Assembly: GCA_037388505.1 (NCBI GenBank)
Contig: JARRKC010000013.1
Coordinates: 9,999 to 73,998 of the forward strand
DNA: 64,000 bases
Origin: Acidobacteriota bacterium
GTDB taxonomy: Bacteria; Acidobacteriota; UBA6911; RPQK01; JAPXNP01
Direction of reading: 5' to 3'
Shown here: positions 52,939-62,144 of the stretch, piece after piece
How the letters are laid out: every line of letters starts with the position of its first letter
Numbering within the stretch: position 1 is the first letter of the stretch
Translations under genes and position numbers: made by a program
Notes under the pieces: generated by a model
Seen by the model: the letters and a program-made list of their open reading frames with translations, nothing else
Databases searched by the model: none
Told to the model about the DNA's origin: nothing

Positions 52939-53328
52939 CTAGACAACCTTCGGCATGCGGAAGGGCTCCACCGTCTTGTGGAACGCCCGGAGGTACAGGG
53001 GGAACTCCGGGCTATAAAAGAGATGCGTCGGACAATCGCAATCACTCGAGCCGAACCCGGCCGGTCCCGGTGTGAGGATCGAACCCATGGCTTCGGCAAG
53101 CGCGCACTCCTGGCGCAGGGACGAGCGGATGGGGAGCGCGCGACACTCCAGAGCTGCCTCTCGCAGGTAGTCCACGTGCCAGCGAAAGCGCTTTCGGTGC
53201 CGCAGGTGACGGGCAATTCTCGCCGTCAGATTCCGCATCGCCGAACCGACATAGACGTACCAGCCGCTCTCAAACCTCAGCTCTCCGAGCTTTCCGACAC
53301 AGATCGGACGATTTTCGGTGAGCTTCAT
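52939..53328 (-). CDS. DUF123-family protein (predicted nuclease-like; GxYxYVGSA / HWHxDYL motifs)
   Basis: …GWYVYVGSAMRNLTARIARHLRHRKRFRWHVDYL… Start placed at ATG 53328, overlapping the sfsA 3' end by 59 nt; true start uncertain (ORF extends to 53598). Confidence 0.4.
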   Translation of the reverse strand: MKLTENRPICVGKLGELRFESGWYVYVGSAMRNLTARIARHLRHRKRFRWHVDYLREAALECRALPIRSSLRQECALAEAMGSILTPGPAGFGSSDCDCPTHLFYSPEFPLYLRAFHKTVEPFRMPKVV

Positions 53329-54076
53329 CAGCAGAAGATAGGCGCCGCAGTCCTGCGCCTCCCTCTCGATGAAGGCCCAAGGAATCGACAGCGGCTTGGG
53401 CCGACCCTTCAGCCTCAATGACGATGTCCATCCCAGGGCAACCGGAAGAATACGTGTGATAGTCCGGAAGGAATCGTTCGACTCGATTGGAATGGACCAG
53501 GAACAAGACCACTGGTTTCGGTTCATCAGTTCGTGCAGCATCGGACCCAAGTCCAGCCAACTCCAATAGATGCCGTCGGCCCCGTTCCGTGACGGCATCC
53601 GGAAAGAGGGCGGCGCCGTTGCCGAACAGGGTCACCGACTTCACTTCGAGGAAAAACCTCTCTCGGTTCTCCTCCATCAAGAAGTCGAAGCGGCTGGATC
53701 CGAGCGGAACCTCCGATCTGACGACTTTGGCAGATTCCAAGCCCGGGATCCGCTGCTGTTCGAGCAGGTTTCGGGCGACGGCGTTGGTCTGGTGAGTGTG
53801 GATGAAGATCGTCTCGCCCTCCCGGTCGACGGCCCAGGCCGTGTAGCGGGTCTTTCTGGGAGCCCTCCGATGGGCACGCGGCACTCTCCTTCGAGAGGAC
53901 TCGAGTTCGTCCGCCAGGTAGATGGTCACCCCGGGGAGCAGAAGTTCGTCGAGCCTGCCGGAGTTCGGCATTTGCGCTTCGACGACACCCCTTCCGTGGA
54001 TGCGACAACGGACGAGAAACCGGTTCGGACGTTCGACGAAGATGCCCTTTACCAAGCGACCCGGCACGAGATCCAT
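53270..54076 (-). CDS. sfsA: SfsA (sugar fermentation stimulation protein A) family nuclease-like DNA-binding protein
   Basis: Collinear with E. coli SfsA from N-terminus through …FFLEVKSVTL…FPDAVTERGRRHLLEL…VLFLVHSNRVERFLP…. Confidence 0.7.
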   Translation of the reverse strand: MDLVPGRLVKGIFVERPNRFLVRCRIHGRGVVEAQMPNSGRLDELLLPGVTIYLADELESSRRRVPRAHRRAPRKTRYTAWAVDREGETIFIHTHQTNAVARNLLEQQRIPGLESAKVVRSEVPLGSSRFDFLMEENRERFFLEVKSVTLFGNGAALFPDAVTERGRRHLLELAGLGSDAARTDEPKPVVLFLVHSNRVERFLPDYHTYSSGCPGMDIVIEAEGSAQAAVDSLGLHREGGAGLRRLSSADEAHRKSSDLCRKARRAEV

Positions 54077-54971: not shown

Positions 54972-55024
54972 GGTGAAAGGGACAGACTGATTCTCGGTTG
55001 GTGAAAGGGACAGGCTCGTTCTCG
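54972..55024 (+). repeat. Tandem pair of a ~25-nt locus-specific repeat (GGTGAAAGGGACAGRCTSRTTCTCG)
   Basis: Copies at 54972-54996 and 55000-55024; see also 56692-56748, 61262-61284 and 61971-62144. Confidence 0.7.
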
Positions 55025-55098
55025 CTCCCCCTTGGGACTTCCCGGGATCTCCGGAGCGGATGGGTCGCGGCGCAATCTCAAGACATCCGCAGCCGGCC

Positions 55099-56334
55099 CT
55101 ATGGCTTCCGCTTCAGCTCGACACGCCGGTTCAGAGCCCTTCCCTGCGCGGTCTCGTTACCGGCCACCGGCCGGTCCTCTCCGTAGCCCTGAGGCTCGAG
55201 TCGTCCGGAATCGATTCCCTGTTCGACCAGCCACGCCACAACGGAGCGGGCGCGGCGCCGCGAAAGATCCCGGTTGTAGGCGGCGTCGCCCGTGGAGTCG
55301 GTGTGACCTTCAACGATGAGAGCGAGCTCCGGTTGCTGTTCCATCACGTTCAGCACTTCCTGAAGCGTAGCCTCAGAGTCGGAGCGCAGCCGGTCCGAAT
55401 CGAGGTCGAAGTGAATGCCATAAACGATGGCCCGGCCACTCTCCCGGAGCGACTTCTGGAGGGATCCCTCGTGTTGGAGTTGACAGGAGGGTCGTTCGCC
55501 GGGCGCGGCGCGGGAGCCCACCCAGAACCCTCTGTAGGCCCCCTTCTCATACCAGAGTCCATTCAGTTGGTCGCCCGTCGAAGAGAGCACCATGAGAGCT
55601 GTTCCGATCTGCTGTCCCTCGTTTTCGCGCCACTCGAACTGGATGACCCGACCATCGAGATTCCCGCTGAGCGAGCCCTGGTCCCAGTCATAACAGCCGC
55701 TGATACTGGACCCGTCCTGCGCGAAGAGAACAAGGCCGAAGTTGGTCCGATAGACCCCCGAAACCCGAACCTCCGACGCTTCTTCTTCCAGTTGTCGACC
55801 ATACGCTTCCAGTTCCATGAGCTCGGTGTAGCTTTCCTGACCCCAGTTCGACAGGATGACAATCTTGAGCCATCGAGCCTGCGTACCTGCCGCGAACTCG
55901 AACTGAGTGCGGCTTCCCTTTTCGGCCTCCACTCCGAGGACTTCGGAAAAGGGGCCCGTAGGACCTGCACTGGAAGTCCACACTCCGATTCGGCGCGCCG
56001 AGATCCCCGGATAAGAGTCTTCCTGAGCGGTCGAGTTGTCGAACACGATCGAGGTGAGCTGACTCGGTCGGTCCAGTTCGATGACGACCTGATGCGGAAA
56101 GGCGGCACCTTCAGCCGTGCACCAACCCTGTTCCGCCGTGTCGTCGAGTACCAGGAGAGCCGCCCACTTCTCATTGAACTGGCTCGACTGAGAGAGCACA
56201 ACCGCTCCTTCGGCAAGATTCAGAAGGTCAACGGAGGGCTGCCCGTTGTTTTGCTCCGCTCGTGTCGAACCGATACAAAGAGAGAAGCAGACGAAGAGAA
56301 CCAAATGGCACGATGGCCGGACAGAAATGTTCAT
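55099..56334 (-). CDS. OmpA-family peptidoglycan-binding protein with N-terminal F5/8 type C (discoidin-like) domain
   Basis: C-terminal OmpA_C motif (…EGHTDSTGDAAYNRDLSRRRARSV…NRRVEL); signal peptide from ATG 56334. Confidence 0.7.
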   Translation of the reverse strand: MNISVRPSCHLVLFVCFSLCIGSTRAEQNNGQPSVDLLNLAEGAVVLSQSSQFNEKWAALLVLDDTAEQGWCTAEGAAFPHQVVIELDRPSQLTSIVFDNSTAQEDSYPGISARRIGVWTSSAGPTGPFSEVLGVEAEKGSRTQFEFAAGTQARWLKIVILSNWGQESYTELMELEAYGRQLEEEASEVRVSGVYRTNFGLVLFAQDGSSISGCYDWDQGSLSGNLDGRVIQFEWRENEGQQIGTALMVLSSTGDQLNGLWYEKGAYRGFWVGSRAAPGERPSCQLQHEGSLQKSLRESGRAIVYGIHFDLDSDRLRSDSEATLQEVLNVMEQQPELALIVEGHTDSTGDAAYNRDLSRRRARSVVAWLVEQGIDSGRLEPQGYGEDRPVAGNETAQGRALNRRVELKRKP

Positions 56335-56691
56335 TGTCCTGAGGAATGCACCACAAATGCCGCCTCCTGGGAATTGACCTCGGACTGCTCCTTTAGGCAA
56401 AACGACACCTCCTCGGCTGACGACTGGTCAATACGAACTGGCGGATCGCGTTCATCATATACAGCGTCCCTGTCGGACCGACGGGAGCCTTGCCCTCTGA
56501 AGCATGCGGTGGATGCCGATCACATAGCTCCGTCACCGGTCACCCATTCACCCGAATTCACCAGGCGCAGCGTCAGTGCGCGAACGCACGTGAGCGATCC
56601 CGCTCACGGTCGCCGGCTCCCTGTCTTCCCCCGGGGCACGAGCACCGGCGGCAATCTACCGCATCGGCACGAGCCGAAGAACCAAGGTGGT

Positions 56692-56748
56692 CCAAAAGGG
56701 ACAGGTTCGTTCTCGCCCGAAGAGTCGAAAGGGACAGGCTGGTTCTCG
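56692..56748 (+). repeat. Second tandem pair of the GAAAGGGACAGGYTNGTTCTCG repeat
   Basis: Copies at 56692-56715 and 56726-56748, between the divergent OmpA-like and lipoprotein/TlpA genes. Confidence 0.7.
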
Positions 56749-57022
56749 TCAGGTACGGGCGGCTCTCATCTCGATAGGATCCGCCGAGTCCAGTCGTTGG
56801 TGTGCGTTGACCTTGCTGCGGCCGTTCTTCTGCTTTGAGATTCCCGTAGGGCGAGCCCCAGTTTCGGAAGCCCGGCCTCTCGGGCTGTCATGAAATTGGT
56901 CGACTCGTTGCGAATGCCCGGATCTGGCGATATAGGATCTTGATCATATCGTCTTTTCGCGGACAGTAGGAGAGAAAGTACTATCCGACTCGGGCCAGGG
57001 CCTGACGAGCAGGAAGGGGATC

Positions 57023-57358
57023 ATGAGACGATCCAAGGCTTCATCTTTCTTCATCATGGTATCGCTGTTGGGTTGCGCGGCGGCATGCCGATCGGGAAAA
57101 CCCGATGACTTGACGCCCCGGTATCTTTCCTCACCTACCCCACAGAACCTGCAGGCCCCGCCACTTACTCTCCGCAAACGGATCGTTCTCCGGGATTGTG
57201 AGAGTCTGTCGATGCAGTACGTTCTCACGGTTACTCCCGCCGAAGATGCTTATTACCTGTTCACCTCGCAGGGAATCGGTCAAATCGATTCTACGGGGCG
57301 ACTGGTGCGGCTCCTGGGGGACGACCTCGTCAAGCAGCGAACGCAGGACGTTCGGTGA
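57023..57358 (+). CDS. Lipoprotein N-terminal fragment (possible 5' part of a frameshifted lipoprotein-TlpA gene)
   Basis: Lipobox MVSLLGCAAAC. Protein-like sequence ends at TGA 57358, while a different frame carries protein-like sequence from ~57366 onward. Confidence 0.35.
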   Translation: MRRSKASSFFIMVSLLGCAAACRSGKPDDLTPRYLSSPTPQNLQAPPLTLRKRIVLRDCESLSMQYVLTVTPAEDAYYLFTSQGIGQIDSTGRLVRLLGDDLVKQRTQDVR

Positions 57359-58319
57359 TCCAAGCCATGAGTATAGAAAGAGTTTTCTACCTCGGTTCCT
57401 CCTCGCAACGGATTCCCGTGCGGAGATCTTCGCCGTCAATGCTATTGATTACGAGATTAGAAAGTATGACAGCCGAGGTGACTACATCGGCGACTTCCGC
57501 CTCTGCGAGGATGAGGACTATCGACCTCCTCCAGAATCCGTCGACGTTGAGCGGCTCAGCACCGACCTCGACTGGCGGACTGATTGGGCCAACACCTGGA
57601 CCCGGCTCAAGAACGTAGAAACGATCGACGACCGTTACCTGATCGTCCAATTGACGTCCCCCGAGTCGCAAAGGTACCGCCTGCAATTCTATTCCCTCGA
57701 CGGAGCGGTCGCCTTCAAGCCAATCGACTGGGATCTGGAACTGGCCGATGCCGATCAAGCGGGAAATCTCTACTTCGAGGAGAGGGACGCGGGCGGCGGC
57801 GTCACGGCTCTGGATGTCTACGGACTCGGACCCAAGAGGGACGAAGCTCGGCAGACGCTGGTTCCTGCTGTGACGGGCATGACAAATCGACGGGCTGAAT
57901 CTCCGGTGCCGGCGCCTGAATTCTCGGTCACTGATCTCGAAGGAAACGAGTTCTCGTTGGAGAATCTACGAGGACGCGTGGTTCTGGTGACTTTCTGGTC
58001 CATCGGCTGTTCTCCTTGTCGAGCGGAGGTACCTCGACTGAACGCACTGGCAGAGGAGTTCAAGGGTCTGCCCGTCACTTTTCTCGCGCCGACACCGGAT
58101 GGAGCCAAAGCGCTGCAGCAATTCCTATCAACGACCGATTTCCGGTTCCGGGTTATCAATTATGCGGGCACGGACTTGGCGGATCGCTTCGGTGTCCACG
58201 GCAGTATCCCCGTTCATTTCCTGATCGATAAGAAAGGGAATGTCGATTCGGTGATCAACGGCGCCGTAGTGAACGACGAGCGGCTCGGTCGGCGAGTCAG
58301 GCAGTTGCTTGACCGCTGA
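57198..58319 (+). CDS. TlpA/ResA-like thiol:disulfide oxidoreductase domain protein (upstream region probably frameshifted, so start unreliable)
   Basis: C-terminal thioredoxin fold VVLVTFWSIGCSPCRAEVPRL. The first ~55 codons of this ORF (Cys/Ser/Arg-rich) look non-coding. Confidence 0.5.
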   Translation: MRVCRCSTFSRLLPPKMLITCSPRRESVKSILRGDWCGSWGTTSSSSERRTFGDPSHEYRKSFLPRFLLATDSRAEIFAVNAIDYEIRKYDSRGDYIGDFRLCEDEDYRPPPESVDVERLSTDLDWRTDWANTWTRLKNVETIDDRYLIVQLTSPESQRYRLQFYSLDGAVAFKPIDWDLELADADQAGNLYFEERDAGGGVTALDVYGLGPKRDEARQTLVPAVTGMTNRRAESPVPAPEFSVTDLEGNEFSLENLRGRVVLVTFWSIGCSPCRAEVPRLNALAEEFKGLPVTFLAPTPDGAKALQQFLSTTDFRFRVINYAGTDLADRFGVHGSIPVHFLIDKKGNVDSVINGAVVNDERLGRRVRQLLDR

Positions 58320-58435
58320 CCAGGTCTATCACTGGAGAAGAATAAACAGGGTCTTCGTTCAGAGTCAGTACCAACTCTCTTCCGACTGGGCGTCTCTCTC
58401 CTCGGATTCGGTGGACGCAGAATGGGTAGGAGAGC

Positions 58436-61243
58436 CTACCTGGCCCTACGGTGCTGCAAAGCCCGGAGGATGGCATCGATCACATCGTCAAGATGCTTTC
58501 CGAGATCTTGCGCAAGGAATCGCAGTACCAGATAGCCGTTCTCCTGCAGCAGATAGTCCTTGCGGCGATCGCGACGATAAGCGTCCGTGTCGGCGACGTG
58601 TTGGGGGCCATCGACTTCGAGGACCAACCTGGACTCAGCACAGAGGAAGTCCACCTCCATCGCTCCCCGTCCGTCGAAGGGGATCGGCAATGTCACGTTC
58701 AGTTGAAACCGCCCGGCGGTCTGGGGGAGCGTTTCCAGACGCCGGAAAAGGAAGGCCTCACTGCCACTTCGAGCCCGGCCGACCTCCGTCGCATCGGCGG
58801 ACGGAGTTCTGGTTGCGCGGACGAACAGATCGGCCAGCGGCTTATCCACGCCGTCTCGAACCAGCCTCCGGACACTGGCTGCATAATCCTCTTTCCAATC
58901 GGGATCGACGGGGAGCGACACGTCTGTGGGCCAGCCGGGCAACGCGTGGGCCGGCAGGATGATCTTGTATCCCGCCGCCTCGTAGCCTTTGCAGCGTCGG
59001 TCGAACATCCGCGCCAGCATAGGCACGTTCAGATCGGCATAGTCATAGACTCGAACTTCACGCTTCCTTTCATGCAGACGATGGAGCCGGCCGAGATACT
59101 GTGCGATCGTCCCCCGCCACGAGACGGGAAGAGTTAGAAACAGAGTATCCAACCGGGCATCGTCGAATCCTTCTCCGATGAAGCCACCGGTCGCCAAGAG
59201 AACACGCTCCTCAGTCTCCGGGATCGCGGCCAGCTGGGCTCGTGCTTCCCGAAGGGCCTTGCGTCCCATGCCGCCCCTCAACGTGACCAAGTGCGTCACT
59301 CGATCCGACAACGCCCGAGCCAGGATATCGAGATGCTCGTTGCGTTCGGTCAGAACGATGGGCGAGCGACCTTCTCGGACCGTCTGCACGACGTCCTCAC
59401 AGATGGCGCGGTTTCTTCTTTCATCGACGGTCAACTCATCATAGAGATCCTGAAATCGCAATCGGACATCGGGATCCGCAGGTCGAAGCGCACGAAAATC
59501 CGTAGGACGAACCAGCACCTTATGATCGAAGGGACGTCGGGCAGCCTGCCTTCTGGGATCCACGCGGTATCGGATCGGACCGCACTGCATGAAAATGATG
59601 GGATGGTGGCCGTCCTTGCGGATGGGCGTCGCCGACAGGCCGAGCACGAACTTCGACTTCGCCTCACGTGCAGCCAATTCGAAGCTGTGTGCAGGAATGT
59701 GGTGGCATTCGTCGACGATCAAATGGCCATATCGGCTCACGAGGTCGTCGACCTCCCCCTTGCGGACCAGGCTCTGGATCACCGCCACGTCCAGGAGACC
59801 CGTGGGCTTCTTTCGTCCTCCGCCGATGGTACCGATGCTCAACCTGGAAAGGCCGAGGAACGAGCTCAGTCTCTCGACCCACTGCTCGAGCAACTGTCTC
59901 CGATGAACGATCACCAGGGTATTGACACGGCGCCGGGCGATCATCCACGCGGCCACGACCGTCTTTCCGAAAGCCGTCGTCCCGGACAGCACCCCGATGT
60001 CGGAGACCAGCAGCGCGTCGGCGGCGAGCTTCTGCTCCGGCCGCAGGCGGCCCTGGAATTCGACATCCAGCGGCTCACCGCAGTAGCGTTCCTCCCGGAT
60101 TGCGGTTTCGATCCCAAGATCGGAGAGAAGCTGCATCAGGTCCTCCAAACATCCCCGTGGAAGGCCGACGTGCCGCGGGTAGTCTCGGGCACATCCGATG
60201 ATGCGAGGTTTGCGGAAGGTGGGAAGCCGCATCGCCTGGGCCCGGTAGAACTCGGGGTTCTGAAAGGCAGCCAGACGGATCAACCGGTTACGTAAGGCTG
60301 GCGCCAAGTCCTCTTTGGGAATGAAGATCTCATTTCCCAGAACGATCTCGAGCCGTTCCGGCAGCGGACCCGTGACGGGTGGGCCGACCCATCGGCGTGA
60401 CGGAGACGTCTTCCAGGGAGTCGCATCGTCGTCATCGGGCGCGAGGCGCACGCCGAGGATTCTCCCGCGGGCTTCCGCTTCGTCGACAACCGCTTCCACT
60501 TCAGCGCGCGTCATCTTCCGGATTTTCGACAGGAAGCTCCACTGATCCGAATAAGGAACAAACTGGTCGTCAACAAAGACTGAGTTTCCACCTTCCCTGG
60601 GTCCCTTTTGAAGGGGAAGGGCGATGAGATTGCCGAATCCGCCCTTCGGCAGGGTATCCTGATTCGGAAAGAGACGATCATACGAATCCAGGCCGATGTC
60701 CGGGCAACGCTCCATGGTTTCGGTCAAGATGAATGTGCCGAGCGAACGTGCCATTCGCGCGGGAATCGACTCATCGAAGAAGAACCACACATGGGCGCCG
60801 CCGCCGGACCGCGAGCGTTCCATGGCTGCCGGAAGATCAAACACGCGGCAGGTCTGAAGGAAGGCCAGTGCGTCCTCCTGCCAGTTCTCCTTGTCGAAGT
60901 CGGCAGCCAGAAAGAAGCAGGTTTCGTCCCGGAGCATCGGGTAGACGCCGACTACGCAATCCTGTTCCCGATCGTCTCGTCCCTCCAGATGGAAGCGGAT
61001 GACGTCGTCCGTCACGGCCAGAAAGCGCTGATGTGGACAGCGACTGCATTTGATCTTCGGCTTCTCGCACACGCCGGCCACCCACTCGTTCCCACAAGCC
61101 GGAGAGTATCCGGACCGGCCCGTCCTGCGGCTTTCGAATCGCCGCGGATACACGTCCTCGCGTCCTCGGAACAAGGACCGAAAGAGCGCGATCTTTACTT
61201 CCGGAGGAGAATGAAGATCGACGGCTAACGGCACTTCATCCAC
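58436..61243 (-). CDS. Multidomain protein: Zn-ribbon + archaeo-eukaryotic primase-polymerase (Prim-Pol) + XPB/Rad25-like SF2 helicase + C-terminal DUF559 (Vsr-like endonuclease fold)
   Basis: AEP motifs I FLAADFD, II SGGGAHVWFFF, III GLDSYD. Helicase motifs I GTTAFGKT, II VDECHH, III LSATP, VI QYLGRLHR. DUF559 …LVLEVDGPQHV…YRRDRRKDYLLQENGYLVLRF…. Confidence 0.8.
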   Translation of the reverse strand: MDEVPLAVDLHSPPEVKIALFRSLFRGREDVYPRRFESRRTGRSGYSPACGNEWVAGVCEKPKIKCSRCPHQRFLAVTDDVIRFHLEGRDDREQDCVVGVYPMLRDETCFFLAADFDKENWQEDALAFLQTCRVFDLPAAMERSRSGGGAHVWFFFDESIPARMARSLGTFILTETMERCPDIGLDSYDRLFPNQDTLPKGGFGNLIALPLQKGPREGGNSVFVDDQFVPYSDQWSFLSKIRKMTRAEVEAVVDEAEARGRILGVRLAPDDDDATPWKTSPSRRWVGPPVTGPLPERLEIVLGNEIFIPKEDLAPALRNRLIRLAAFQNPEFYRAQAMRLPTFRKPRIIGCARDYPRHVGLPRGCLEDLMQLLSDLGIETAIREERYCGEPLDVEFQGRLRPEQKLAADALLVSDIGVLSGTTAFGKTVVAAWMIARRRVNTLVIVHRRQLLEQWVERLSSFLGLSRLSIGTIGGGRKKPTGLLDVAVIQSLVRKGEVDDLVSRYGHLIVDECHHIPAHSFELAAREAKSKFVLGLSATPIRKDGHHPIIFMQCGPIRYRVDPRRQAARRPFDHKVLVRPTDFRALRPADPDVRLRFQDLYDELTVDERRNRAICEDVVQTVREGRSPIVLTERNEHLDILARALSDRVTHLVTLRGGMGRKALREARAQLAAIPETEERVLLATGGFIGEGFDDARLDTLFLTLPVSWRGTIAQYLGRLHRLHERKREVRVYDYADLNVPMLARMFDRRCKGYEAAGYKIILPAHALPGWPTDVSLPVDPDWKEDYAASVRRLVRDGVDKPLADLFVRATRTPSADATEVGRARSGSEAFLFRRLETLPQTAGRFQLNVTLPIPFDGRGAMEVDFLCAESRLVLEVDGPQHVADTDAYRRDRRKDYLLQENGYLVLRFLAQDLGKHLDDVIDAILRALQHRRAR

Positions 61244-61261
61244 AGTTGTAGTGTACCTTTT

Positions 61262-61284
61262 GAAATAGGGACAGGCTGCTTGAG
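61262..61284 (+). repeat. Single copy of the GGGACAG repeat family (GAAATAGGGACAGGCTGCTTGAG), 19 nt upstream of the Prim-Pol/helicase start
   Basis: Seen in sequence. Shares GAAATAGGGACAG with the inverted copy at 62008-62022. Confidence 0.6.
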
Positions 61285-61294
61285 TTCGAGCGAG

Positions 61295-61786
61295 CTACAG
61301 CCTCTCCCGGCAGAACAGAACGAAGTCCGTGGAGGCGGCAGGAAGACCGGATTGTCTCAGCAGGGTCGTAATCTGTCCGCGATGGTAGCTCGAGTGATTG
61401 ACCACGTGAAACAGGAGTTGCCACAGAGGTTGGGCGAACGGCTCCCCGGACGTATTTCGATAATGCAGGACTTCGCCCAGTGATGCCTCGGTCAAACCGG
61501 ACAGGAATTTGGCCATTTCACTGTCGACTTCTCGCCACCGTTCTCGGATCTTCGGAATGGACGACGAGTTCCAGCCCTCCGGTATCCCGGAGGGGGATGT
61601 TCCGGTCCAGCGTTCGAGCCAGACCCACTCGGCCGAGAGAATATGGTCGAGTGTTCCCTGGATTGACGCAAAGCTGCTCGAAAGGTCGCGCTGCAGCTCG
61701 TCCGAGCCGACGGCCGAGACAACATCCAACATGCGCCGGTTGGCCCACCCATTGTAGCCATAGAATTCTCGAATCTCTTTGAGCAT
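61295..61786 (-). CDS. DinB_2/DUF664-family (damage-inducible DinB-like four-helix bundle) protein
   Basis: …YNGWANRRMLD…HILSAEWVWLERW…HVVNHSSYHRGQI… typical of the DinB/YfiT family. Confidence 0.7.
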   Translation of the reverse strand: MLKEIREFYGYNGWANRRMLDVVSAVGSDELQRDLSSSFASIQGTLDHILSAEWVWLERWTGTSPSGIPEGWNSSSIPKIRERWREVDSEMAKFLSGLTEASLGEVLHYRNTSGEPFAQPLWQLLFHVVNHSSYHRGQITTLLRQSGLPAASTDFVLFCRERL

Positions 61787-61970
61787 GGGTCTCCTTCTCC
61801 CGCAGACAGGCTGGAGGAATCCCTGTCAGGTGCAATTACTCTGTCAGGTGTTGAGGAAGGAATGGACTTGACCCGTGTCCCGTGCTGCTTGAAGTCGTCA
61901 ATCATGAACGTAGCGTTTCAGATGCCGTAACAAGAGACCACATCGGAGCCGTCTTCAGCTTGCCGTGCAG

Positions 61971-62144
61971 CCTGTCCCTTTCCTACGTTCCTGACCGCGT
62001 AAACGAGGCTGTCCCTATTTCCGTCCTGTTGTCTCCTGCCTTTACCTTTCGCCCCGGCTGCAGTCTGTCCCCTTCCCCTGCCCGCGCTCGCGTGAATGAG
62101 TCTGTCCCCTTCTTCCGTCGTGAAGGAGTCTGTCCCTTTCTTGG
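61971..62144 (-). repeat. Array of five copies of the GGGACAG repeat (plus-strand form RGYCTGTCCCYTTYC) within a 780-bp non-coding gap upstream of dinB_2
   Basis: Copies at 61971-61983, 62008-62022, 62063-62078, 62098-62116 and 62126-62144 (spacings 37, 55, 35, 28 bp), all in the same orientation and inverted relative to the copies at 54972-61284. Confidence 0.7.

Follow-up and report, generated by a model that had tools for sequence, protein, structure and literature searches.

The gene at positions 58436..61243 (minus strand, GTG start codon, stop codon at 58436-58438) of the 64-kb window, i.e. the whole stretch of DNA analysed here, encodes a protein of 935 amino acid residues. By its sequence, the protein is a member of the IEE family carrying a tail of 173 residues with a predicted nuclease. 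We favour, with a probability of roughly 55%, the reading that it represents a chromosomal member of the IEE or "AEP-TOTE" group which, equipped with a Vsr-like nuclease, would take part in the removal or repair of mobile-element DNA intermediates. Its most likely function would be that of a self-contained enzyme which cuts or trims DNA ends on such intermediates and then joins them through microhomologies. The open reading frame and its reading as a fusion of an AEP primase-polymerase, an SF2 helicase and a DUF559 endonuclease had been part of the original prediction and were borne out, the three domains by Pfam profiles and by matches to solved structures. Homologs of 930-950 aa aligned over residues 1-935.

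IEE (ECs1305/Z1568) from Escherichia coli O157:H7 was reportedly discovered by Kusumoto in 2011 and is, to our knowledge, the sole bacterial enzyme dedicated to the removal of insertion sequences. Its mechanism is disputed, with end joining after a double-strand break and strand switching during copy-out as the two proposals. The original prediction had missed this protein, the closest characterised relative. In a BLASTP comparison with IEE of E. coli O157 (the EDL933 coding sequence identified as IEE by its length of 786 aa and by residues Y128, D142, D144, K451 and R735), the two proteins were 49% identical across 747 aa (E=0). The alignment covered query residues 17-762, hence the AEP and helicase domains, its end at 762 corresponding to residue 778 of the 786 residues of IEE. 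The residues D142, D144, D216, H178 and Y128 of IEE correspond to D115, D117, D189, H151 and Y101 of the 935-aa protein and are invariant in 45 homologs; the Walker A lysine K451 and the arginine finger R735 correspond to K427 and R719, both likewise invariant. The Pfam family PF22548 fits both proteins equally well (E=1.7e-98 for IEE and E=2.4e-98 for the 935-aa protein). Both are also encoded by single genes without a conserved partner. In contrast, IEE stops right behind the helicase and has about 33 more residues at the N-terminus, and it is located on an integrative element (SpLE1-type context), whereas the gene described here is chromosomal and its context differs from genome to genome. 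The two-domain plan of IEE was not matched: the 935-aa protein has 173 extra residues that include DUF559 and is therefore regarded as a variant of IEE rather than as its orthologue.

The AEP/PrimPol domain (residues 17-251; 60491..61195, minus strand) scores 328.8 bits with PF22548 (AEP-TOTE; cut-off 27), the family to which the "Z1568-like" AEP of IEE also belongs. The putative catalytic residues are D115 and D117 of the motif FLAADFD, H151 of the motif SGGGAH (in which S144, S146 and G149 were also checked in homologs) and D189 of the motif SYD; Y101 aligns with Y128 of IEE. The nearest solved AEP structure is the CRISPR-associated PrimPol 7nqd (E=2e-9). The catalytic cores of CRISPR-associated PrimPol (CAPP) and the 935-aa protein are related, but their fusion partners differ, and a score of 78.5 bits with the model NF040561 (CAPP), below its cut-off of 200, places the 935-aa protein outside that group. 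A cluster of four cysteines (C50-x8-C59-x6-C66-x2-C69; 61037..61096, minus strand) is located within the N-terminal part of the AEP domain. It is invariant in 45 of 45 homologs, is also kept in E. coli IEE and probably forms a zinc-binding element; since its fold was modelled without confidence (pLDDT 35-48), zinc binding is only inferred.

The AEP domain is joined to the helicase by a strongly conserved region (residues ~296-398, including AAFQNPEFY..AQAMRL; 60050..60358, minus strand), which probably corresponds to the domain found at the N-terminus of XPB-type helicases. Foldseek alignments to XPB chains of 435-440 aa cover about 485-500 columns, and residue 296 marks the start of the matches to phage helicases. 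The SF2 ATPase/helicase core follows at residues 399-762 (58958..60049, minus strand), with a ResIII/DEAD match at 399-542 (E=5e-20). It displays motif I (GKT, K427), motif II (DECHH, 511-515), motif III (SAT, 537-539) and motif VI (QxxGRxxR with R719; Q715, G718 and R722 were also checked in homologs). Archaeal XPB-II/Rad25 is the closest solved structure to the 935-aa protein (E=9e-20), and with the predicted model XPB ranked first and T4 UvsW third in Foldseek; the full-length model is of moderate quality (mean pLDDT 64.7, 76-90 in the nuclease part) and was built on homologs too similar to one another. The RED motif is a hallmark of XPB. In the 935-aa protein, motif III continues as SATPI-R542-K543-D544, of which the arginine and aspartate are invariant and the lysine nearly so, and IEE from E. 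coli has R-R-D. The NCBIfam equivalog model for XPB was matched at 57.2 bits, far below its cut-off of 610. The earlier assignment to the XPB/Rad25 type consequently holds, judged from the sequence, in the sense of the closest solved relative and not in the sense of orthology.

The C-terminal extension (residues 763-935; 58439..58957, minus strand) has no counterpart in E. coli IEE. A linker (763-825), highly conserved inside the DUF559 clade and modelled with low confidence, leads to a predicted DUF559/Vsr-like PD-(D/E)xK endonuclease domain (residues ~826-930; 58454..58768, minus strand). It matched PF04480 at 49.9-53.7 bits, well above the cut-off of 20.6; DUF559 was located at 863-930 with E=3.3e-13, or 2.1e-14 when the tail was searched alone, and the solved DUF559 relative is 3hrl (E=4e-6). 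Residues E863, D865, E876, D878, Q881 and H882 of the predicted nuclease are invariant in 45 homologs. The catalytic motifs of all three domains, each present as originally quoted, are strictly or almost strictly conserved among 45-118 full-length homologs. All three predicted active sites are conserved, that of the nuclease being predicted from sequence.

The architecture had been considered unusual, a view that the database searches refuted. A search with the 935-aa protein gave matches to at least 8000 database clusters, all with E ≤ 1e-10, and among the matches listed 120 of 120 have the same full-length architecture with about 70% identity. At least 592 loci were found in species-representative genomes from more than 10 phyla. 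The family is common and already named, in Pfam as PF22548 "AEP-TOTE" and at NCBI as [quoted passage not shown]; the 935-aa protein is, as far as its sequence tells, a nuclease-bearing variant of this known family. In other branches of the family the C-terminus is either bare or carries a PLDc_2 nuclease (E about 1e-11 to 1e-12) at the same position. The presence of unrelated nuclease folds (DUF559 and PLDc_2) at one C-terminal position argues that DNA cleavage is a part of the pathway. The GC content of the gene follows that of the host (r=0.91), with GC3 values from 0.31 to 0.83, and protein identity across phyla is 60-70%; a long residence under strong purifying selection is evident at the level of the sequences. 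Recent horizontal spread as the cause of the high identity is weakened, since both GC and GC3 of the gene vary with those of the host. A phage origin was unsupported: the phage matches comprise the helicase only at 25-27% identity, and 2.9 million viral contigs yielded 10 matches.

Nuclease-less relatives are located on conjugative plasmids and integrative elements, and relatives also occur on a few viral contigs. AEP-helicase fusions are described as typical of mobile-element replicases in PMC5862659 and PMC11724360. The 935-aa protein might hence serve an integrated mobile element as its primase-helicase for replication, similar to the PrimPol-helicase replicases of plasmids and viruses, a role that we consider very improbable. 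Its helicase is an XPB/UvsW-like SF2 protein and not a hexameric replicative helicase of SF3 or SF4, the related IEE does not unwind DNA (PMC9943667), and a fused Vsr-like nuclease is foreign to replicases. Moreover, the composition of the gene is that of its host, neither a conserved element context nor flanking repeats were observed, the 64-kb window has no tRNA gene, and a Pfam scan of the nine flanking genes revealed no integrase.

In the window, the gene is surrounded by genes for a DinB-fold protein, VapB/VapC, SfsA and a DUF123 protein, all present as originally described. In 82 loci compared for flanking genes, DinB and VapBC recurred in 0/82, and the genes for SfsA and DUF123 recurred solely in the closest relative. 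An operon with VapBC, SfsA or DUF123 was rejected (recurrence in 0-1 of 82 loci). No conserved neighbour was found among the 82 loci: no family occurred in more than 7/82, and the most recurrent ones were generic (SNF2 helicase, ABC-F, kinase, AbiEi and AAA ATPase). DNA homology between loci ended at the borders of the ORF. The lack of a conserved partner together with these sharp borders therefore defines a single-gene unit. The repeats shared upstream, a further element of the original prediction, are real within the window, in which a short repeat with the core GGGACAG occurs in 9 copies against 1.65 expected, all within 54976-62139; it was not found with the gene at other loci. No tandem repeat array was present in 50-64 kb of the window, and no Rfam match around the gene. 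Nor was there support for a single gene that moves by itself, bounded by terminal repeats or preceded by a conserved RNA: flanking DNA is not shared, Rfam gave no match and the repeat is local.

The DinB gene is located 51 bp upstream without a predicted terminator (the scan for promoters and terminators was uninformative), and its adjacency had suggested a module for the repair or tolerance of DNA damage. In a host repair pathway of this kind, XPB-like opening, nuclease incision and gap filling or lesion bypass by the PrimPol would amount to an excision repair by one protein. Several observations agree with such a role: XPB is the closest solved helicase, including complexes of XPB with the nuclease Bax1, AEP enzymes such as LigD and Prim-PolC work in bacterial repair (PMC9943667), and purifying selection is strong. 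The archaeal XPB-Bax1 pair shares with the 935-aa protein an SF2 motor of the XPB type, the best match in sequence and fold among solved structures, and the association of this motor with a nuclease. DinB-fold proteins are thiol-transferase-like enzymes and not DNA polymerase IV; the family (PF05163/PF12867) comprises no DNA polymerase, and DinB is not adjacent to the gene in any of the 82 loci. In the 935-aa protein the nuclease is fused, Vsr-like and unrelated in fold to Bax1, a PrimPol is added, and the stretch behind motif III reads R-K-D. The patchy distribution of the gene in ever different contexts, the low score with the XPB equivalog model and the ATPase activity without unwinding of IEE (PMC9943667) further speak against repair of host damage, which we consider improbable.

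The names given to the family in databases point in another direction. TOTE is the acronym of conflict systems composed of TPR, OB, TBP and Effector (Aravind, Iyer and Burroughs 2022, cited by PMC12458937). The AEP domain of the 935-aa protein owes its Pfam name to these systems, but the partner genes for TPR-OB and TBP proteins are absent beside its gene and beside those of the 87 relatives inspected. None of the nine flanking genes encodes a TPR-OB protein (S1/cold-shock domain); the sole TPR match near the gene is a secreted AhpC/TSA protein at a distance of 5.6 kb, and a CspA-like domain was located near the gene in 1/82 loci. TBP family members were absent among the Pfam-annotated neighbours in the window and in the loci L001 and L002 as well as in the annotated plasmid and E. 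coli loci, and no small neighbour is conserved in the 82 loci. A canonical TOTE operon is thus unsupported, with no neighbour family in more than 7/82 loci and no TPR, OB or TBP partner. Since DinB recurs in 0/82 loci and TPR/OB/TBP partners are missing, neither DinB-linked repair nor a canonical TOTE operon is supported.

A function as an anti-phage or anti-plasmid effector, either as the "E" of TOTE or as a stand-alone helicase-nuclease that translocates on and cuts foreign DNA while the PrimPol senses or amplifies damage, is nevertheless possible, although doubtful. The conflict-gene reading fits the labels of Pfam PF22548 and NCBI, and PMC12458937 cites TOTE as a conflict system. ARMADA defence systems contain fusions of a helicase with a Vsr nuclease, and the top match in PADLOC was the profile of the cas-associated PrimPol (E=7e-93), whereas no whole-protein defence model was matched. 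Genes for toxin-antitoxin systems, integrases, HNH proteins and AbiE are frequent neighbours. On the other hand, the partners that define TOTE are absent in the window, the 82 genomic loci and the inspected plasmid and E. coli loci, an identity of 60-70% across phyla is atypical of arms-race genes, nuclease-less relatives reside on the side of the mobile elements, and an experimental defence phenotype for the family was not found in the literature.

The reading as an IEE-like enzyme draws on the activities of the E. coli protein, an Mn-dependent, error-prone DNA polymerase that catalyzes microhomology-mediated end joining (MMEJ) with the need for both domains (Calvo et al. 2023, PMC9943667). 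IEE is a DNA-dependent ATPase without unwinding activity, and the model of the authors needs nucleases for making and resecting ends, leaving nicking and trimming to the transposase together with unidentified nucleases of the cell (PMC9943667). By analogy, the SF2 module of the 935-aa protein would bind duplex DNA and pair two DNA ends, hydrolysing ATP probably without unwinding; the AEP module would search 3' tails for shared microhomologies of 4 nt or more and extend them with dNTPs; and the fused nuclease may provide the nicking or end-trimming step in cis. Such a reaction would, for example, excise insertion sequences of the copy-out-paste-in type and produce deletions as by-products. In E. 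coli, IEE co-occurs with IS3-type (copy-out-paste-in) insertion sequences in 94.75%. The in vivo role of IEE has been shown in E. coli only, where it depends on the transposase.

LigD and Prim-PolC likewise use an AEP polymerase for joining or filling broken DNA, and LigD combines it with an end-processing phosphoesterase domain in the same polypeptide, comparable to the nuclease of the 935-aa protein. In contrast to both, the 935-aa protein affiliates with another AEP clade and has an SF2 ATPase instead of a ligase domain. At the sugar-discriminating position it has the tyrosine aligned with Y128 of IEE, a residue linked to the preference for dNTPs, whereas LigD has a histidine there and prefers rNTPs (PMC9943667). 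Against an IEE-like role, the fused nuclease might reflect another substrate or another function, such as an attack on foreign DNA. The "conflict system" label of Pfam and NCBI also speaks against it, as do the frequent toxin-antitoxin and integrase neighbours, which are likewise seen in defence islands.

The nuclease-fused forms may even represent an autonomous IEE pathway, in which mobile-element DNA or transposition intermediates would be recognised, cut out and resealed without the transposase of the element, a "genome-cleaning" immunity based on a single protein and directed at transposons or other invaders, whether integrated or replicating. We consider this extension unlikely. If it were true, the two independent fusions, Vsr-like and PLD, would indicate the nuclease step that is lacking in the action of IEE, and a substrate that does not co-evolve, a DNA structure rather than a protein, would account for the unusually strong conservation over more than 10 phyla.

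In the nuclease-bearing clade the gene stands alone, with no TOTE partners, and its current annotation name may therefore suggest a multi-gene system that is absent. The comparison with IEE joins two nomenclatures for one domain, the "AEP-TOTE conflict system" of Pfam and NCBI and the "IEE/Z1568-like" proteins of the experimental literature. Large family branches with a fused nuclease of two unrelated folds offer a testable handle on the missing end-making step of IEE.

The gene at 58436-61243 (minus strand) is listed among the ORFs of the window as a 935-aa protein with a GTG start. The original prediction of an AEP primase-polymerase, an SF2 helicase and a DUF559/Vsr-like nuclease in one polypeptide was confirmed by Pfam-type profile searches, which placed the AEP domain at residues 17-251 (PF22548, E=2.4e-98), the helicase core at residues 399-542 (ResIII/DEAD, E=5e-20) and the nuclease at residues 863-930 (PF04480, E=3.3e-13 for the whole protein and 2.1e-14 when the last 173 residues were scanned separately). 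Among solved structures, sequence comparison matched the helicase best to archaeal XPB-II/Rad25 (E=9e-20), the AEP domain to the CRISPR-associated PrimPol 7nqd (E=2e-9) and the tail to the DUF559 protein 3hrl (E=4e-6). An AlphaFold model built from 45 homologs was of moderate quality overall (mean pLDDT 64.7) and confident in the AEP core, both RecA lobes and the DUF559 domain. With this model as query, Foldseek against the PDB ranked XPB first (XPB-Bax1 complexes, TFIIH) and T4 UvsW third. Alignments of full-length homologs (118 and 45 sequences) showed every motif initially quoted to be invariant or near-invariant: AEP residues D115, D117, S144, S146, G149, H151 and D189, the cysteine cluster C50, C59, C66 and C69, helicase residues K427, D511-E-C-H-H515, S537-A-T539, Q715, G718, R719 and R722, and nuclease residues E863, D865, E876, D878, Q881 and H882. 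Residues 252-398 and 763-860, which lack any profile match, are as conserved in the homolog alignment as the catalytic domains.

Two proteins in NCBI (P0001 and P0002) match the window protein at 100% identity and are annotated at 833 aa. Their start lies approximately 102 codons downstream, which would cut about 100 residues, the Cys4 cluster among them, from the beginning of the AEP domain. Since homologs of 930-950 aa agree with the 935-aa reading, the start annotated in the public records is probably incorrect.

The architecture, at first considered unusual, is that of a common and already named family. A protein search yielded at least 8000 scored candidates, all at E <= 1e-10, and the 120 matches listed all share the full-length architecture (120/120) at about 70% identity. 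Some homologs are named 'TOTE conflict system archaeo-eukaryotic primase domain-containing protein' by NCBI, and JGI uses 'superfamily II helicase/very-short-patch-repair endonuclease'. When a single genome was scanned for each species, at least 592 loci were detected. The 80 loci retrieved from these encode proteins 60-87% identical to the window protein and span, among others, Acidobacteriota, Planctomycetota, Verrucomicrobiota, Lentisphaerota, Riflebacteria, Gammaproteobacteria (including Coxiella and Legionellales), Saccharimonadales and Methylomirabilota. The family is known, named and abundant, with an experimentally studied member.

The E. coli EDL933 record encodes a 786-aa protein with Y128, D142, D144, K451 and R735 exactly at the positions described for IEE, the IS-excision enhancer of E. 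coli O157:H7 (Calvo et al. 2023; PMC9943667). With IEE, the window protein shares 49% identity over 747 residues (query 17-762, IEE 50-778, E=0); it consists of the IEE core and a 173-residue C-terminal extension bearing DUF559. At the level of sequence, these alignments establish its family membership and the conservation of its active sites. IEE matches PF22548 as strongly as the window protein does (E=1.7e-98); the 'AEP-TOTE' domain of Pfam and the AEP that IEE papers call 'Z1568-like' are therefore one family. Y101 of the window protein aligns with IEE Y128, a tyrosine set against the histidine of rNTP-preferring LigD-type AEPs (PMC9943667). IEE and transposase are both required for IS629, along with other insertion sequences thought to move by copy-out-paste-in, to be excised at high frequency. 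In vitro, IEE is a Mn-dependent, error-prone DNA polymerase that joins 3' overhangs sharing at least 4 nt of microhomology, for which both domains are required, and its ATPase is DNA-dependent without unwinding DNA (PMC9943667). The IEE literature examined makes no mention of a fused nuclease; the TOTE review, outside that scope, may depict this architecture.

In 82 loci, the ORFs lying up to 6 kb from the gene were called and clustered. The commonest neighbour family occurred in seven of them, and the recurrent families were generic. DinB_2 adjacency had been taken as a clue to repair, but DinB lies beside the gene in none of the 82 loci. A DinB-linked repair module is consequently improbable, as it relies on an adjacency that is not conserved and the DinB protein here is not a polymerase. 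The VapBC, SfsA and DUF123 neighbourhood fared no better: VapB and VapC were absent beside the gene in all 82 loci, and SfsA and DUF123 recur solely in the closest relative (L003). DNA similarity among loci ends at the ORF borders, even in the 87%-identical L003. In the Pfam-annotated contexts of two homologs, and likewise in five loci with annotation from plasmids or E. coli, the gene is solitary, often with integrases and toxin-antitoxin pairs nearby. That it serves as a mobile-element replicase seems very improbable, given the lack of an element context around the gene and an SF2 domain of XPB/UvsW type, presumably non-unwinding.

As called, the SfsA and DUF123 (GIY-YIG-like) ORFs of the window (52939-54076, minus strand) share a strand and overlap by ~330 nt. 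They also adjoin in L003 (4293-4531), and this repeated adjacency suggests a conserved pair or fusion in this lineage. A 111-aa ORF (57023-57358, plus strand) whose product has a signal peptide of lipoprotein type (…LLGCAAAC…) overlaps the beginning of a 373-aa AhpC/TSA-redoxin ORF (57198-58319, plus strand) read in a different frame; the overlap could reflect a frameshift, by sequencing error or in a pseudogene, within one lipoprotein thiol-disulfide oxidoreductase gene.

A unit of ~25 nt (GGTGAAAGGGACAGRCTSRTTCTCG, core GGGACAG) occurs in nine copies in the window versus 1.65 expected, all of them intergenic and confined to four stretches from 54.9 to 62.2 kb: upstream of vapBC (54972-55024), upstream of an OmpA-like gene (56691-56748), between DinB and the IEE-like gene (61262-61277) and upstream of DinB (61969-62142). 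Copies are often tandem at a spacing of 28-37 nt, too short for a CRISPR array, and have no Rfam match. The unit is unlinked to the IEE-like gene in other genomes (two incidental matches in 87 loci) and may be an operator array or REP-like element. Two tandem pairs (54975-55025 and 62090-62140) form 51-nt inverted repeats, 76% complementary, that flank a 7.1-kb segment with the OmpA-like, AhpC/TSA, IEE-like and DinB genes.

The database label 'conflict system' and the island-like neighbourhoods speak for a defence effector. TOTE stands for TPR, OB, TBP and Effector, as PMC12458937 explains (citing Aravind et al. 2022). Of these components the effector domain alone is present here; the defining partner genes were not found at the loci inspected, a cold-shock-type OB domain neighbours the gene in one of 82 loci, and no PADLOC system model matched. 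The DUF559-bearing clade is a stand-alone gene. Its GC content follows that of the flanks (r=0.91; GC3 from 0.31 to 0.83 across hosts), hence it has resided in each lineage long enough to acquire host composition. That the protein nevertheless stays 60-70% identical indicates strong purifying selection on the whole polypeptide, a pattern not typical of arms-race genes. We therefore regard a defence role as possible but rather unlikely.

The C-terminal nuclease varies within the family. Residues 1-386, searched against 1.84 billion 50%-identity representatives, matched 1782 clusters at E <= 1e-30. Among the 150 representatives listed, 55 extend to the helicase end: 32 stop directly after it like IEE, three carry a DUF559 tail and 20 another tail of 100-161 aa. 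In each of the four non-DUF559 tails scanned, a PLD-family HKD nuclease domain exceeded the gathering score (PF13091, E=5e-8 to 5e-12), and the ten tails printed all resemble one another in C-terminal sequence pattern. Such a domain replaces DUF559 in the homologs P0136, P0152, P0164, P0200 and others (metagenomic tails scanned); in a 950-aa Bacillus wiedmannii plasmid homolog (L086, 6803-9655), PLDc_2 scored 21.5 bits, below the gathering score of 27. A rough neighbour-joining tree built on the common core put the DUF559 forms together in a single compact clade, next to forms without a nuclease from conjugative plasmids of alphaproteobacteria, and grouped the long, PLD-type forms apart. Such plasmids carry the nearest relatives lacking a nuclease (55-61% identity; length about 813 aa), among them genes on Rhizobium binae plasmid p5 (locus L083, 8821-11262), near ParB-N-terminal-domain and DUF736 genes and a tyrosine recombinase trio, and on Acidiphilium pACMV1 (locus L084, 8839-11277). 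A DUF559 tail was found in none of the 75 plasmid matches listed (drawn from 264 records as best-ranked and spread samples; no alignment beyond query residue 805) and in one of ten viral-contig matches, counts whose meaning is limited by database taxonomic bias.

In the published IEE model, transposase makes breaks, 'cellular nucleases' resect the ends, and IEE pairs microhomologies and then extends them (PMC9943667). Two nuclease folds unrelated to each other occur as fusions at one and the same site of the IEE core, as would be expected if cutting or trimming of DNA were integral to the IEE pathway. Both points favour, with a probability of roughly 0.55, the window protein as a self-contained machine for nicking or trimming, end-holding and microhomology extension. 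We infer its activities, substrate and link to insertion sequences as follows: the Vsr-like domain would nick or trim DNA, the SF2 ATPase would grip the duplex and draw ends together, and the AEP would extend from microhomology with dNTPs. The analysis joins the TOTE and IEE nomenclatures and assigns stand-alone status to the DUF559-bearing clade, and with two independent nuclease fusions the missing nuclease step of IEE action is now testable.
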